Positions 44,900-49,945 of a stretch of 64,000 bases of DNA are shown in pieces (within the stretch, counting starts at the first letter, position 1; the number at the start of each line of letters is the position of its first letter). Source of the DNA: an uncultured delta proteobacterium (lineage in GTDB: Bacteria; Desulfobacterota; BSN033; UBA1163); assembly GCA_963708295.1 (NCBI GenBank), contig CAVPSJ010000015.1, forward strand, positions 96,001 to 160,000, read 5' to 3'. The notes under the pieces are model-generated. The model did not search any database. It had not been told where the DNA came from and worked only from the letters and a program-made list of their open reading frames with translations. The translations under genes and the position numbers were made by a program.

Positions 44900-45169
44900 A
44901 TGGAAGCGATGGAGCAATGGGTAAAGGTGGGAACGGTCGAGAATCGATTTGAGGGCGATCGGATCTCTCAGGTTCTTCAGGAAGCCGGGATTCCATTTTT
45001 CATCAAATCGTTTCTCGATACGGCCTATGACGGGCTTTACATCCCTCAGAAAGGGTGGGGGATCGTGATGGTTTCTAAAAAAGATAAGGGAGAGGCAGAA
45101 AAACTAATTTCCGAAGTCAAGAAAACGTTCGTGAAGGAGGAAGAGGATGAAACTGGACAGCTTGGATGA
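44900..45169 (+). CDS. DUF2007-like small signal-transducing protein
   Basis: ENRFEGD....L.EAGIPF..KSF.DTAYDG....QKGWG. Confidence 0.75.
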   Translation: MEAMEQWVKVGTVENRFEGDRISQVLQEAGIPFFIKSFLDTAYDGLYIPQKGWGIVMVSKKDKGEAEKLISEVKKTFVKEEEDETGQLG

Positions 45170-45596
45170 AATTCTGAGGTTTGCTATCCGGAAAGAGGCG
45201 GATGCGGCCGCTTTCTACAAAATGGCAGCGGACCGCTCGGCCCCTGGCGTCAAAAAGACGTTTGAAGAATTGGCTGCCATGGAGGAAGGGCACAAGAAGA
45301 AACTCGAAAAATTTGATCCGAAAGAGATCGGTCGGATGAAATTGAAGGAAACGGAGGGGCTGGGGATGAGCGAGATGCTGGAGGATGTGCCTTTTAGCTC
45401 GGACATGAGCTATGCGGACCTTCTTCGTATGGCGATCAAAAATGAAGAGAAATCCCAGCGTCTTTATCTGAACACAGAAAAAATGGTGACGGAGCCGAAT
45501 TTAAGAAAATTGCTTTTAATCCTCGCCCAGGAAGAATCGACCCATAAAGAGAAACTGGAGAAGATTTACGATGAAGACATTCTGAAAGAGTTCTGA
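45147..45596 (+). CDS. Ferritin-like (rubrerythrin di-iron) protein
   Basis: AIRKE...FY, EEGH, AIKNE and EESTH di-iron motifs. Confidence 0.88.
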   Translation: MKLDSLDEILRFAIRKEADAAAFYKMAADRSAPGVKKTFEELAAMEEGHKKKLEKFDPKEIGRMKLKETEGLGMSEMLEDVPFSSDMSYADLLRMAIKNEEKSQRLYLNTEKMVTEPNLRKLLLILAQEESTHKEKLEKIYDEDILKEF

Positions 45597-45915: not shown

Positions 45916-45955
45916 GATTTAGAATTTGTCATTTGACATTGCGTTGGGAGGGTCC

Positions 45956-46342
45956 ATGATACCCGGATTGACCGGAAAATGTGAGATGGTCGTCAAAGAA
46001 GAAGATCTGGTCAGCCAACTGGGGGATATCCCTCTAAATGTCCTCTCCACGCCAAGGCTGATTCAACTTTTGGAGAACGCTGCGATTGAGGCGATCCGTG
46101 ATCATATGCCCGGGGATCAAGTGAGCCTTGGCGCAGAGATCAAGGTCAGGCACCTGTCGGCGACGCCCCTTGGCATGAAGGTCACTGCCAACGCCCTTCT
46201 AAAAGGAGTGGAAAAAAACCGGCTACACTTCCTGGTAAACGCCTACGATGAGAAGGAAAAAGTGGCAGAGGGAGAGCACGAAAGAGTTCTCGTGTCCAAG
46301 GAGCGTTTTCTTGAGAAGGTGAAGAACAAGAGCGCGGGATGA
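45956..46342 (+). CDS. FlK-type hotdog thioesterase
   Basis: VLSTPRLIQLLENAA, SLG..I.VRHLSATPLG and GEHER. Confidence 0.88.
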   Translation: MIPGLTGKCEMVVKEEDLVSQLGDIPLNVLSTPRLIQLLENAAIEAIRDHMPGDQVSLGAEIKVRHLSATPLGMKVTANALLKGVEKNRLHFLVNAYDEKEKVAEGEHERVLVSKERFLEKVKNKSAG

Positions 46343-46390: not shown

Positions 46391-46807
46391 ATGAGGCGCT
46401 TTGAGATCTTGGATCATACGGCGGATATCGGTATTATCGTCCATGGCGAGAACCTCAAGAGGCTTTTTGAGAATGCGGGGGAGGCTTTTTTCCGTCTCAT
46501 CACCGATTTAAGAAAGGTCAAAGGTCGGATCGAGAGGCGGGTGAATATCGGAGCAGAGAGTTTGGATCGGTTGATGGTAGATTGGCTGAGCGAACTTCTC
46601 TACCTTCACGACGTCGAGAATCTTCTCTTTAAAGGGTTCAACGTCGACTCCGTCGGGGAGGACGGCTTGAAGGCTGCTGTGAAGGGGGAGCCGTTTCAGG
46701 AGGGGGTCCATGTGATCAAGACGGAAGTGAAAGCCGTGACCTACCACCAGATAGAAGTTCGACAGGAGAAACGGGGCTGGAGAGCTCAGGTCATCTTGGA
46801 TCTTTAG
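46391..46807 (+). CDS. Archease (RtcB activator)
   Basis: FEILDHTADIG, WLSELLY, EVKAVTYH and VILDL. Confidence 0.95.
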   Translation: MRRFEILDHTADIGIIVHGENLKRLFENAGEAFFRLITDLRKVKGRIERRVNIGAESLDRLMVDWLSELLYLHDVENLLFKGFNVDSVGEDGLKAAVKGEPFQEGVHVIKTEVKAVTYHQIEVRQEKRGWRAQVILDL

Positions 46808-46915
46808 TTAGGACGGTCAAGAATATCTCCAAAGTTTTGCAAATGCAAAACTTATCCGACATCGTTGCCCGTCCTTTGCACCGGGACAATGTGCTCACTC
46901 CTTCCCTTCGGAAGG

Positions 46916-47144
46916 GAGACTGTGTCACAATGGAACGTCTGAGGGGAGAGGCAGTCGGGTTCCAAAGCTTTAGAACGCGGGTCTTTTAGGAATGGGGAAC
47001 CGTCGTTGGCTAAAAATCGAATGTGTTCATATGGTTGGCGACCCTGAATCCAAACGGTTATAAAGGTTGCCGCTCTAAATCTTCTCCACCCGACCGCCTT
47101 TCCCCTTTTTTGAAAAGCGTGTTTTCATATTGCGACACAGCCTC
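46916..47144 (+). mobile_element. MITE copy A (229 bp), target duplication AGG
   Basis: Termini GAGACTGTGTCACAAT / ATTGCGACACAGCCTC, with AGG on both sides. Confidence 0.85.
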
Positions 47145-47173
47145 AGGGGGGAAAGGAATAGATAGGAGTACCC

Positions 47174-48628
47174 ATGTCTGATCAAGAGAAAATCAAGATA
47201 CAGAAGATAGATGATTACCGGTGGAGAATTCCCCGGGAAGGAAAGATGAGGACCGATGGGGTGATCTATGCCGACGAGCGGTTGTTCAACGACATCCGGA
47301 AGGACCAGAGTCTGACCCAGGTCGCGAATGTCGCATGGCTTCCGGGTATCGTGGGCCATTCCCTGGCGATGCCGGATATCCATTGGGGTTATGGCTTTCC
47401 TATCGGGGGCGTGGCGGGCTTCGACATGGATGAAGGAATCGTTTCCCCCGGAGGGGTGGGTTACGACATCAATTGAGGTGTCCGTTTGATGCGCTCAGGT
47501 CTGAGCCGCACGGACGTTCAGGGAAGAATGAAGGAATTAGTGGAGGCCCTCTTCGTCAACATCCCTTCAGGCGTAGGTTCTCACCGGAAGGACCTCAAGC
47601 TGAACCGGGAGGAGGAACGGCGAGTTTTAAAAAAAGGAGCCCGGTGGGCCGTAGAAAAAGGGTTCGGCTCAGCGGAAGATCTTGACCACATCGAGGAACA
47701 CGGCCGCATCGAGGGAGGCGATCCGGACCGGGTCTCTGAAAAAGCGATGGAAAGAGGCAGAGCCCAATTGGGGACGCTGGGCTCGGGGAATCATTTCGTT
47801 GAGGTGGGGTACGTGGCGGAGGTTCTTGATGAGTCCGTCGCTCGATCGTTAGGGCTCTGGAAGGATCAGGTCACGGTGATCGTCCATACCGGTTCAAGGG
47901 GTTTGGGTCACCAGGTTTGCGATGATTACATCCGGGTCATGCTCGATGCAGCCAGGAAATACCAGATTGAACTTCCAGACCCCCAGCTCTGCTGTGCCCC
48001 TTTGTCTTCGCCGGAAGGGAAGCGGTATCTCGAGGCCATGGCCTGTGCGGCCAATTTTGCTTTCACCAATCGGCAGATGATCACCCATTGGGTGAGGGAA
48101 ACATTTGAGCAAGTATTCCGAAAGGGCCCCCGGGATCTTAAATTAGATTTGATCTATGATGTCTGCCACAATATTGCAAAGATTGAAACCCATACGGTGA
48201 ATGGAACAAAGAAAAAGCTCTGCATCCACAGGAAAGGTGCGACGAGAGCCTTTCCTCCAAACCATCCCGACCTTCCCTCGGATTACCAATCGACCGGCCA
48301 GCCCGTCCTCATCCCGGGGGATATGGGGAGATGTTCGTATGTTTTGGTGGGGACGGAAAAAGCGATGGAAGAGACCTTTGGGAGCACCTGTCATGGAGCG
48401 GGCCGGGTGATGAGCCGGCATCAGGCCGTGAAGGCAGCAAGGGGGAGAGCGATCGTCAGGGAACTGGAAGATAAAGGGATCATCGTCAAGGGTGCGAGTC
48501 AAGGGACCCTTGTGGAGGAGATCCCCGACGCCTATAAGGATGTGAATGATGTCGTGAATGTAGTCCACCGGGCCGGCATCAGTCGAAAAGTGGCAAAGCT
48601 CGTCCCCCTGGGGGTGATCAAAGGATAG
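47174..48628 (+). CDS. rtcB: RtcB RNA ligase, 484 aa, with predicted selenocysteine at codon 101 (TGA 47474-47476)
   Basis: ORFs 47174-47476 and 47486-48628 are in the same frame: [15 protein letters not shown]. The other catalytic motifs are intact ([36 protein letters not shown]). Confidence 0.92.
47480..47515 (+). promoter_or_regulatory. Putative SECIS element of rtcB
   Basis: GTCCG..TGC-GCTC-AGGTCT-GAGC-C-GCA-CGGAC. The apical AGGUCU equals the E. coli fdhF SECIS loop and begins after a 20-nt spacer from UGA. Confidence 0.85.
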
Positions 48629-48713: not shown

Positions 48714-49739
48714 ATGAGAATTCTTGCGATAGATATCGGTGCGGGGACTCAGGATATTCTCCTTTTCGATTCGGGACAAAAGATCGAAAATTGTACCAGC
48801 CTCGTTCTTCCTACGCCGTCCAAGTTTCTTGCAGAAAAATTGAAGACGATCGAGAGTCCTGTCTATATCCATGGCGATACGATCGGAGGAGGTTCCCTGG
48901 GCGGGGCTATCCTTGACCACCTTCAAAAGGGATATGGCGTGGTGATGGAAGAGTCTGCGGCTTATTCCATTCGCAATGACCTGGATGAAGTCAAATCCAT
49001 GGGGATTGGGGTGGGAAAGAAGCCTGAGATCGATCGCATCCAGGAGTTGGAGATACGAGAAATCGATCTCGTTCTGTTTGAAAGGTTCCTGATCCATTTC
49101 GGACAGAACCTTCAGGTGGACGTGATTGCGATTGCTGTTCAGGACCATGGCGTTTCCCCTAAAGAAGTTCCGGACCGAGCCTTCCGTTTTGAGAATATGG
49201 AGAGGATGCTCCGAAGAGATAACCGACCCGAGACGTTTCATTTCTTAGAGGACTCGATCCCGGACCATCATCTTAGGATGAAATCAGCCGCAGCCGCGGT
49301 GAAGAGATCTTTCTCGGTTCCAGTGCTGGTCATGGATACAGCGTTCTCGGCCATTTTAGGCTGCCTCGAAGAGACCAGCGGCCCTTCCCTGATCGTCAAT
49401 GTGGGGAACAGTCATACGATTGCCGCGTTGATCATGGAGAGAAAAATCGAAGGCCTCTATGAGCACCATACCCATGAACTGACTCCTGAAAAAATGGAGG
49501 ACGATCTGCGGCTCTTCGCCCGGGGAGAGCTGGAGGGGGAAAAGGTTTTCAAGGAAAACGGCCACGGGGCTGTCACCCTGAAGCCACTCCCTGGAGTATT
49601 TCCAGTGATCGTCACCGGTCCCAACCGCGATCTTTTCAGAAAGACGTCTTTCCCATTCACCTATGCGGCTCCGGGCGGAAATACGATGATGACAGGACCG
49701 ATGGGTTTGGTCAGGGCGGCGCAATACCGATTCGGGTGA
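48714..49739 (+). CDS. DUF1786 family protein
   Basis: MRILAIDIGAGTQDILL, AVQDHG, NVGNSHT, YEHHT and APGG..MMTG. Confidence 0.85.
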   Translation: MRILAIDIGAGTQDILLFDSGQKIENCTSLVLPTPSKFLAEKLKTIESPVYIHGDTIGGGSLGGAILDHLQKGYGVVMEESAAYSIRNDLDEVKSMGIGVGKKPEIDRIQELEIREIDLVLFERFLIHFGQNLQVDVIAIAVQDHGVSPKEVPDRAFRFENMERMLRRDNRPETFHFLEDSIPDHHLRMKSAAAAVKRSFSVPVLVMDTAFSAILGCLEETSGPSLIVNVGNSHTIAALIMERKIEGLYEHHTHELTPEKMEDDLRLFARGELEGEKVFKENGHGAVTLKPLPGVFPVIVTGPNRDLFRKTSFPFTYAAPGGNTMMTGPMGLVRAAQYRFG

Positions 49740-49776
49740 AATGGTTTCGAGTTTTAAACCATTCCTCCCCCTCTGG

Positions 49777-49903
49777 GAGACTGTGTCACGATGGGACGTC
49801 TGAGGGGAGAGGCAGTCGGGTTCCAAAGCTTTAGAACGCGGCTTCTCCACCCGACCGCCCCCCCTTTTTTGAAAAGCGTGTTTTCATATTGCGACACAGC
49901 CTC
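49777..49903 (+). mobile_element. MITE copy B (127 bp, internally deleted), target duplication TGG
   Basis: Same termini and subterminal sequence as 46916-47144, with TGG on both sides. Confidence 0.85.
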
Positions 49904-49945
49904 TGGACGGGGGAGGGTGAGGTAGAGGGAGAGGGAGGGGACAGG

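Follow-up and report, generated by a model that had tools for sequence, protein, structure and literature searches.

A UGA codon at the metal-bridging cysteine position of RtcB points to a natural selenocysteine-containing RNA ligase in an uncultured delta proteobacterium and its relatives

Introduction

Does the gene for the RNA ligase RtcB in an uncultured delta proteobacterium encode selenocysteine (Sec) where other RtcB proteins carry the cysteine that bridges their two metal ions, or is the gene simply interrupted by a stop codon? The question arises in a stretch of 64,000 nt, contig CAVPSJ010000015.1 positions 96,001-160,000, here called the window, whose numbering is used for all coordinates below unless another contig is named. 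An earlier interpretation made from the letters of the window alone, here called the sequence-only reading, had predicted a seleno-RtcB with an archease gene upstream and a selenocysteine insertion sequence (SECIS) hairpin behind the TGA. According to our analysis, the gene very probably encodes a genuine selenocysteine-containing RtcB in which UGA-101 is read as Sec, as judged from the reading frame, the recurrence of the codon across species, the selenocysteine machinery of the genome and the structure that follows the codon. Coordinates of the features are collected in Table 1.

The rtcB frame and its catalytic residues

The rtcB frame runs from ATG 47174 to TAG 48626-48628 and its sole interruption is the TGA at 47474-47476, which lies within [15 protein letters not shown]. 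Translated with that codon taken as sense, it yields 484 residues which match Pfam PF01139 with 601.3 bits over profile positions 1-426 of 426 (594 bits in the genome-level search, with 1 TGA within the match). The product aligns over its whole length with the RtcB proteins of Thermus thermophilus (2epg, E 4e-184) and Pyrococcus horikoshii (7lfq/1uc2, E 8e-179), and residue 101, encoded by the TGA, aligns with the Cys of DINCGVRL in the 2epg and 7lfq structures. In the alignment to 7lfq, read by eye, D98, H207, H238, H332, and H407 correspond to D95, H203, H234, H329, and H404 of P. horikoshii. The metal ligands and the nucleophile of RtcB are all present, the Cys position on condition that the UGA is decoded as Sec or Cys. 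According to the available part of PMC9745838, the ligands of M1 in P. horikoshii RtcB are His234, His329, and Cys98, those of M2 are Cys98, Asp95, and His203, and the active-site Cys bridges the two Mn ions; its mutation to Ala abolishes all steps of the reaction, and in one crystal it was seen oxidized to the sulfonic acid.

As regards the gene itself, these results bear out the sequence-only reading, which had taken two rtcB open reading frames for one frame of 484 aa broken only by the TGA at 47474-47476, the remaining RtcB motifs for intact, and the TGA for the invariant, oxidation-prone, Mn-bridging Cys: the frame is open otherwise, the catalytic residues align to 7lfq, and the TGA aligns with Cys98 of P. 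horikoshii, whose role is that described in the part of PMC9745838 cited above. Archease was likewise found where it had been placed, with a PF01951 match of 152 bits. The gene is the sole RtcB-family match in the genome, which is 91.5% complete; a gene for the RtcA cyclase is present on another contig of the same genome. TGA ends 20 of the 36 long open frames in the window and is thus its commonest stop.

Conservation of the TGA across species

Among 41 genomes drawn from the genus, family, class, and phylum of the window, 38 have an RtcB match, and in 34 of these there is one TGA inside it. When 40 gene copies were cut out of relatives, the TGA stood at the same codon in 35 and was replaced by TGC or TGT in the other five; the TGA-bearing relatives reach down to 65% identity, and two relatives of the same genus (L022 and L026) carry TGC. 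Another genome of the genus (G010) holds two TGA-containing rtcB copies, each 91% identical to that of the window. Of 401 genomes sampled evenly over the phylum, 357 had an RtcB match, and exactly one TGA was found in 47 of the best 150 matches listed (261 further matches exist), distributed over 13 family codes, the position of the TGA within the match being checked only in the genomes that were fetched.

Beyond the phylum, one genome per prokaryote species was scanned with a degenerate DNA pattern for G-[VI]-G-[YF]-D-I-N-TGA-G-[VIM]-R. At least 119 stretches were returned, and the RtcB motif with TGA was present in all 119 of those listed. By their titles, 30 of these belong to Thermodesulfobacteriota, 27 to Nitrospirota, 24 to Acidobacteriota, and 2 to Binatota, with 1 each from Eisenbacteria, Gemmatimonadota, and Planctomycetota; the remaining 33 are titled "Deltaproteobacteria," "Proteobacteria," or "uncultured bacterium," names which are vague and whose mapping to the taxonomy is unreliable. 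The same pattern found no matches in viral contigs. Over the 179 loci gathered in this study, the key column reads TGA in 154, TGC in 16, and TGT in 9, the last two making up 25 Cys forms. The prevalence of TGA-rtcB varies between phyla: in an even sample of 101 genomes from the phylum of one Nitrospirota holder, 80 had RtcB, and TGA occurred in 3 of the 85 rows listed, one of them the starting genome. Relatives that all carry Cys, an outcome which the sequence-only reading had regarded as contrary to its proposal, are therefore not what is found.

The two parts of the gene evolve as one protein. Between 67 Sec forms and the gene of the window, the ratio of nonsynonymous to synonymous differences (pN/pS) is 0.16 over the 90 codons before the TGA and 0.20 over the 375 codons after it, at synonymous differences near saturation (pS 0.68 and 0.73, respectively), and both sides of the TGA are under purifying selection.

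The letters TGA themselves, for which the sequence-only reading had looked to read support, are backed in part. Contigs from three other metagenome runs cover the site, with a synonymous T>C at 47473 and no other letter listed at 47474-47476, although a missing row in such a variant listing is not proof of identity. The runs which hold parts of the window carry the labels wetland, freshwater sediment, sediment, and soil metagenome, with shares of at most 0.34. In the metatranscriptome run X20, a 326-nt contig of a relative covers 47186-47492; since it ends just 16 nt past the TGA, and since an RNA library can hold DNA, it is no evidence of transcription through the codon.

A FastTree phylogeny of 131 distinct full-length proteins (106 Sec and 25 Cys) groups the Sec forms largely by phylum and contains one clade of 22 Nitrospirota sequences which are all Sec, while the named records in the well-supported clade of the window are titled Thermodesulfobacteriota or delta proteobacterium, in keeping with the Desulfobacterota affiliation presumed by the sequence-only reading. 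The tree implies at least nine changes between Sec and Cys, seven of them forced by well-supported branches; it is unrooted and built on a biased sample, in which the TGA pattern supplied the Sec forms, and the phylum of the window alone supplied the Cys forms.

Selenocysteine machinery

The genome of the window encodes SelB (353 bits), SelA (625 bits), and one tRNA-Sec with the anticodon UCA, which scores 81 bits against Rfam RF01852. The other, weak RF01852 matches in the genome are ordinary Ser, Leu, and Tyr tRNAs, and a whole-genome ARAGORN run gave no second UCA tRNA. The genome also has two selD genes, each with one in-frame TGA followed by a hairpin, in the contexts ...KKAG-TGA-AAKLGP and ...RTCG-TGA-AAKIGP; the hairpin of one of them (L011) has the 4-nt loop GAUC, 21 nt after the UGA (spacing read by eye off the fold). 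With selA, selB, selD, and tRNA-Sec all in the genome, the search for Sec machinery which the sequence-only reading had recommended came out in its favor.

When we inspected 22 TGA-rtcB genomes chosen to span other lineages, SelB was above the cut-off in 20 and SelA in 19, with a fragmented SelA in one more. In an Acidobacteriota metagenome-assembled genome (MAG; G434, holding L110), selA and selD lie in several adjacent frame-shifted pieces, a pattern that suggests indel errors from long-read assembly and not decaying genes.

The predicted SECIS hairpin

The hairpin behind the TGA has an upper stem of 4 contiguous bp, a bulged C, and 3 further pairs (Table 1). The fold energy is -15.2 kcal/mol for nucleotides 47483-47516 and -17.8 kcal/mol for the 57 nt that follow the UGA. 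Published criteria for general bacterial SECIS elements (PMC13188914, legend to Fig. 2) call for a loop of 3-9 nt with an upper stem of 4-16 bp, a G at loop position 1 or 2, a UGA-loop spacing of 16-37 nt, and a minimum free energy (MFE) of -7.5 kcal/mol or lower; stem and loop size, loop G, spacing (21 nt), and MFE of the window hairpin all lie within these bounds. A script that applies the criteria to the MFE structure only passed 84 of 134 unique Sec forms; elsewhere in these genes it passed 977 of 5360 codon positions (18%).

The arrangement in which GTCCG (47480-47484) and CGGAC (47511-47515) flank GCTC-AGGTCT-GAGC was found as the sequence-only reading had described it. Its further description of the element as fdhF-like stands only in part. 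The Escherichia coli fdhF SECIS, according to the available text of PMC8659212, has G23, U24, and the bulged U17 as SelB determinants in a minihelix 11 nt from the UGA. Both hairpins follow the UGA directly within the coding sequence and have G and U in a small loop; here, in contrast, GU stands at +26/+27 from the U of UGA (+23/+24 in fdhF), and the one bulged base is a C in the 3' arm instead of a U in the 5' arm. The fdhF-type definition thus does not cover the window hairpin, and the likeness is in the loop letters only; with GU 3 nt further on and no bulged U in the 5' arm, the element follows the general bacterial SECIS model rather than strictly the fdhF type.

The form of the hairpin varies between clades while its location is constant. 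The type GCGCUCA-GGUY-UGAGC occurs in most Thermodesulfobacteriota and many Acidobacteriota; GAAGACC-(A/G)GU(U/C)U-GGUCUUC and its relatives are found in Binatota-like sequences and other Acidobacteriota; GCGCUC-CGUGUU-GAGCGY occurs in Syntrophorhabdus-like sequences; and the Nitrospirota type is a long 16-bp helix, many of whose loops (e.g., A-rich loops of 9 nt) have no G at either of the two leading positions. The best stem carries the loop GGUC or GGUU in 55 of 141 unique Sec forms. In 30 Nitrospirota-type sequences, 83.1% of the cells of the 16-bp helix are paired versus 42-59% when the pairing partner is slid, and 10 pairs have changed on both sides versus 3.7 +/- 1.3 in shuffled alignments, none of 500 of which reaches 10. 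For the other 111 Sec sequences, the upper helix is also paired in 83.1% of cells and the whole structure in 72.1%, versus 28-40% when slid. The outer stem GTCCG/CGGAC, which is paired in just 56.8% of cells across these 111 sequences, is therefore a trait of close relatives. Hairpin conservation, which the sequence-only reading had wished to see examined, is borne out: a hairpin is kept behind the TGA with compensatory changes between clades, the outer stem being confined to close relatives.

A further issue is the state of the hairpin where Cys has replaced Sec. The expectation that Cys forms have no hairpin holds only for distant ones (L056 and L057) and was given up, since sister Cys forms keep the stem. 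Five Cys forms with the family code f15 (L184, L186, L188, L189, and L193) have a perfect 9-bp GCGCUCC-GUY-GGAGCG(C/U) at the SECIS position, and on the tree the Sec form L101 is closely related to them; their hairpin may be the relic of a SECIS, or it may serve some other function. More generally, the hairpin-keeping Cys forms sit inside or beside Sec clades on the tree, and the simplest reading would be recent TGA-to-TGY conversion that left a fossil SECIS behind. In Rfam, no family matched the window at gathering score, and around rtcB there were only two chance-level snoRNA matches (E 0.57 and 0.9).

Weighing the evidence

Several points speak against decoding of UGA-101 as Sec or lessen the weight of the evidence for it. 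That Sec is inserted, that the protein is active, and what advantage Sec gives are matters of inference. Two of the 22 TGA-rtcB genomes (those holding L098 and L130) show no SelA, SelB, SelD, or tRNA-Sec. In L098, from a Gemmatimonadales MAG (G440), the rtcB frame stops 133 codons past the TGA, and the gene therefore looks dead; L130, from a draft of Candidatus Magnetobacterium casense (G444), has an intact rtcB with 378 codons downstream, and either an incomplete assembly or a recently stranded selenoprotein gene would account for it. With regard to the hairpin, 50 of 134 Sec forms fail the MFE-only script and 9 of 23 Cys forms pass it; a stem of at least 5 bp is present in 13 of the 23 Cys forms, perfect over 9 bp in five. 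In the 111-sequence alignment, only 2 pairs have changed on both sides versus a shuffle mean of 4.5. These counts understate covariation, in part because two registers one base apart are mixed in the alignment; a single common structure for all non-Nitrospirota Sec forms was rejected for the same reason, since the clades use either of the two. By free energy alone the hairpin is unremarkable, as the dinucleotide-shuffle z of the 61-nt fold is -1.04, with 28 of 200 shuffles reaching an equal or better energy; nor does synonymous recoding separate Sec forms (mean z -1.24, 135 sequences) from Cys forms (-0.93, 23 sequences; Mann-Whitney P = 0.74), and free energy was dropped as evidence for the hairpin. 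Finally, an engineered Sec98 RtcB reportedly cleaves a nearby peptide bond spontaneously (available part of PMC4150793), so Sec at this site is not automatically harmless; the conservation of the natural genes and the purifying selection on them suggest that their product is stable.

If translation stopped at the UGA, the gene would yield a 100-residue peptide and perhaps a 379-residue C-terminal protein from ATG 47489, hence a split or truncated RtcB, an arrangement which we consider very unlikely. A possible ribosome binding site, GAGG in TGAGGTG, does lie 10 nt before that ATG, and gene callers do call a 379-aa protein beginning with MRSGL in 35 of the 120 database relatives listed. The GAGG, however, is imposed by the UGA plus Gly codons, and the start is poorly kept: at the position of ATG 47489, 141 unique Sec forms have ATG in just 57 cases, GTG or TTG in 19, and a non-start codon in 65, and in 27 of them no ATG, GTG, or TTG occurs in frame within 20 codons of the TGA. 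A C-terminal piece would have neither Asp95 nor Cys98, the latter being the residue whose change to Ala abolishes all steps (PMC9745838, available part), and the upstream 90 codons, with the pN/pS of 0.16 given above, are as constrained as the rest.

Decoding of UGA-101 as some other residue, either as Cys by a Sec-like tRNA or as Trp or Cys by a near-cognate tRNA, would give an ordinary RtcB. It has in its favor that Cys at residue 101 would make a normal enzyme and that Sec-like tRNAs charged with Cys are known from anaerobes, and it appears highly improbable in this genome, where the single UCA tRNA is called as tRNA-Sec at 81 bits, the weaker matches being ordinary tRNAs; where there is a SelA to turn Ser-tRNA(Sec) into Sec-tRNA(Sec); and where both selD genes use the same kind of TGA. 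That rtcB is a pseudogene, or that faulty sequencing or assembly turned a TGC or TGT into the TGA, we regard as extremely unlikely. One base separates TGA from these codons, TGC is what L022 and L026 have, and premature stops after the TGA were seen in 3 of the 119 listed stretches (133 codons downstream in L098, 86 in L125, and 324 in L127), which are probably decaying copies. The TGA nevertheless recurs in independent assemblies, namely in 34 of 38 related genomes with a match and in at least 119 further records; the gene has no other stop or frameshift, and its low pN/pS (0.16-0.20) is reached at near-saturated pS (0.68-0.73). The contigs of the three other runs, with no other letter at 47474-47476, point the same way, within the limit stated for missing rows. 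None of the outcomes by which the sequence-only reading would have been refuted was borne out, sole production of the 100-aa product being one which computation can only make unlikely. Insertion of Sec at UGA-101 is thus the reading we retain.

Proposed mechanism and relation to known systems

On the reading of UGA-101 as Sec, rtcB would give a full-length, 484-residue RNA 3'-phosphate/5'-OH ligase. SelB, loaded with Sec-tRNA(Sec), would dock on the hairpin a few bases past the UGA as the ribosome nears that codon, which would then be decoded as Sec rather than end translation. A selenolate would then replace the thiolate that bridges the two Mn ions beside the GTP phosphates. The reaction would otherwise follow the usual RtcB route, in which the His nucleophile (His407) is guanylylated with the help of archease, GMP passes to the RNA 3'-phosphate, and the 5'-OH then attacks.

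The predicted protein shares its fold family, length, and end-to-end alignment with Cys-type RtcB (P. horikoshii PH1602/RtcB, T. thermophilus TTHA1785, and human RTCB), and likewise the motif [13 protein letters not shown], the metal ligands, the His nucleophile, and the archease partner gene; unlike in these proteins, the residue that bridges M1 and M2 has UGA as its codon, and a hairpin follows. Sec has been placed at exactly the homologous position in the engineered P. horikoshii RtcB U98, which differs in being artificial, SECIS-free, and UAG-encoded via EF-Tu, as the available part of PMC4150793 describes. Formate dehydrogenase FdhA (Mo/W) and [NiFeSe] hydrogenases likewise have Sec in place of a metal-coordinating catalytic Cys. 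These are redox enzymes, whereas RtcB, with its binuclear Mn site, ligates RNA by GTP-dependent nucleotidyl transfer; to our knowledge, RtcB has no redox step.

As for why Sec would be kept, our favored guess is resistance of the ligand to irreversible oxidative or metal-induced inactivation. It is favored because of the analogy with [NiFeSe] hydrogenases, where Sec is proposed to shield the metal site from irreversible over-oxidation (section 7 of PMC13188914), and because oxidation of the RtcB Cys is known; a changed metal preference is an alternative. In metazoa, the active-site Cys of RTCB is protected by PYROXD1 and thioredoxin, according to the accessible parts of PMC12263435, PMC10653391, and PMC10630183. 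Metazoa would thus guard the Cys by a partner oxidoreductase while here the residue itself is changed, the common weak point being oxidation of the Cys, and by this analogy the change from Cys to Sec may serve the same purpose.

No natural Sec-RtcB was found in the literature on RtcB with selenocysteine or selenoproteins (searched also as COG1690, UPF0027, and HSPC117), subscription journals lying mostly outside the search; the only Sec form met was the engineered Sec98 RtcB, in agreement with the sequence-only reading, which knew of no characterized Sec-RtcB. A catalogue of May 2026 (PMC13188914), whose Table 1 is presented as the most comprehensive selenoprotein inventory, has no RtcB or RNA ligase among its 119 prokaryotic selenoprotein families and subfamilies in that table, and neither RtcB nor ligase occurs in its whole text. 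RtcB is not mentioned in the accessible text of the deep-Sep paper and of a 2016 ISME J survey, although supplementary tables of selenoproteome surveys could hold an earlier listing; "selen" does not occur in a 2023 RtcB review, and NCBIfam release 20 has no selenoprotein model for RtcB. Close relatives in a large protein collection fall into two classes, full-length Cys forms and 379-aa MRSGL proteins, the latter being the 35 of 120 relatives listed above, some of them named tRNA-splicing ligase RtcB. Sec forms are therefore stored truncated, as expected by the sequence-only reading, according to which gene callers would split the gene.

Implications

We tentatively propose, as a possibility we hold at somewhat less than even, that Sec-RtcB is an uncatalogued and widespread selenoprotein family, mainly of Thermodesulfobacteriota, a Nitrospirota subclade, and Acidobacteriota, that it is the first selenoenzyme of RNA repair and ligation, and that Sec is kept for resistance to the irreversible oxidation or metal-induced inactivation which kills Cys-RtcB. 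It unites two known kinds, RtcB and bacterial selenoproteins, and is no new kind of system. If the proposal is true, a selenolate would bridge the binuclear Mn site of a non-redox nucleotidyl transferase, the enzyme would have built into it a substitute for the protection which metazoan RTCB receives from PYROXD1 and thioredoxin, and RNA repair would depend on the selenium supply wherever Sec-RtcB is the only RtcB. As a non-redox RNA enzyme, Sec-RtcB would be unusual among selenoproteins and stand outside their usual thiol-oxidoreductase pattern. The single active-site Cys is the known weak point of RtcB, so a conserved natural Sec there would be a ready-made experiment, which could teach us about the role of the bridging ligand and offer a route to oxidation tolerance. 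Since annotation pipelines systematically truncate Sec-RtcB, selenoproteome counts and calls of RtcB presence or absence in these phyla are biased.

Genomic neighborhood

Archease, an activator of RtcB guanylylation, is encoded upstream of rtcB and on the same strand in 105 of the 115 loci with at least 1 kb of upstream sequence, and directly downstream in 4 more. Neither an RtcR-type regulator nor rtcA is among the genes adjoining rtcB in the window.

Table 1. Positions of the rtcB locus features in the window and of related genes elsewhere
Feature	Position	Strand	Remarks
Archease gene	46391-46807	+	138 aa; Pfam PF01951, 152 bits, profile positions 1-136 of 136; NCBIfam NF001617, 134.8 bits
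rtcB	47174-48628	+	484 codons plus stop, one frame, one in-frame TGA
TGA codon, residue 101, predicted selenocysteine	47474-47476	+	Equivalent to Cys98 of P. horikoshii RtcB
Predicted SECIS hairpin	47480-47516	+	Within coding sequence, directly after TGA
Outer stem	47480-47485 with 47510-47515	+	GUCCGU pairs with ACGGAC
Upper stem	47491-47497 with 47502-47509	+	GCGCUCA/UGAG-C-CGC, one bulged C
Apical loop	47498-47501	+	GGUC, 4 nt long, begins 21 nt after UGA
selD genes (L010, L011)	G000:C17:66608-67531 and G000:C4:371872-372792		Outside the window
rtcB copies of the same-genus genome G010 (L059, L029)	C1:160725-162167 and C1:2028919-2030361

On either side of the two genes, our annotation includes a rubrerythrin/ferritin-like protein at 45147-45596 (Pfam, 60 bits), a hotdog protein resembling fluoroacetyl-CoA thioesterase at 45926-46342 (108 bits), and a DUF1786 protein at 48714-49739 (243 bits). 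The spacer between archease and rtcB is 366 nt long here, and those of the relatives are short and unrelated (median gap, 77 nt). Its interpretation as a regulatory RNA was rejected, as it is unconserved in the relatives and consists mostly of a dispersed repeat. The repeat, of about 235-245 nt, lies at 46919-47153; the spacer gives 27 matches in the genome, some ten of which are nearly complete and 82-96% identical, and a second copy in the window, with an internal deletion, is found at about 49775-49906. A metagenome contig from run X1 joins 46918 to 47154 and resembles an empty site. The repeat appears to be a small non-coding mobile element, similar to a miniature inverted-repeat transposable element, inserted between the two genes. 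On the same contig as the window, about 29 kb before its start (G000:C15:66807-66880), ARAGORN called a "tRNA-Stop" with the anticodon UUA at the unusual position 31, which could be a false call or an ochre-suppressor-like tRNA.

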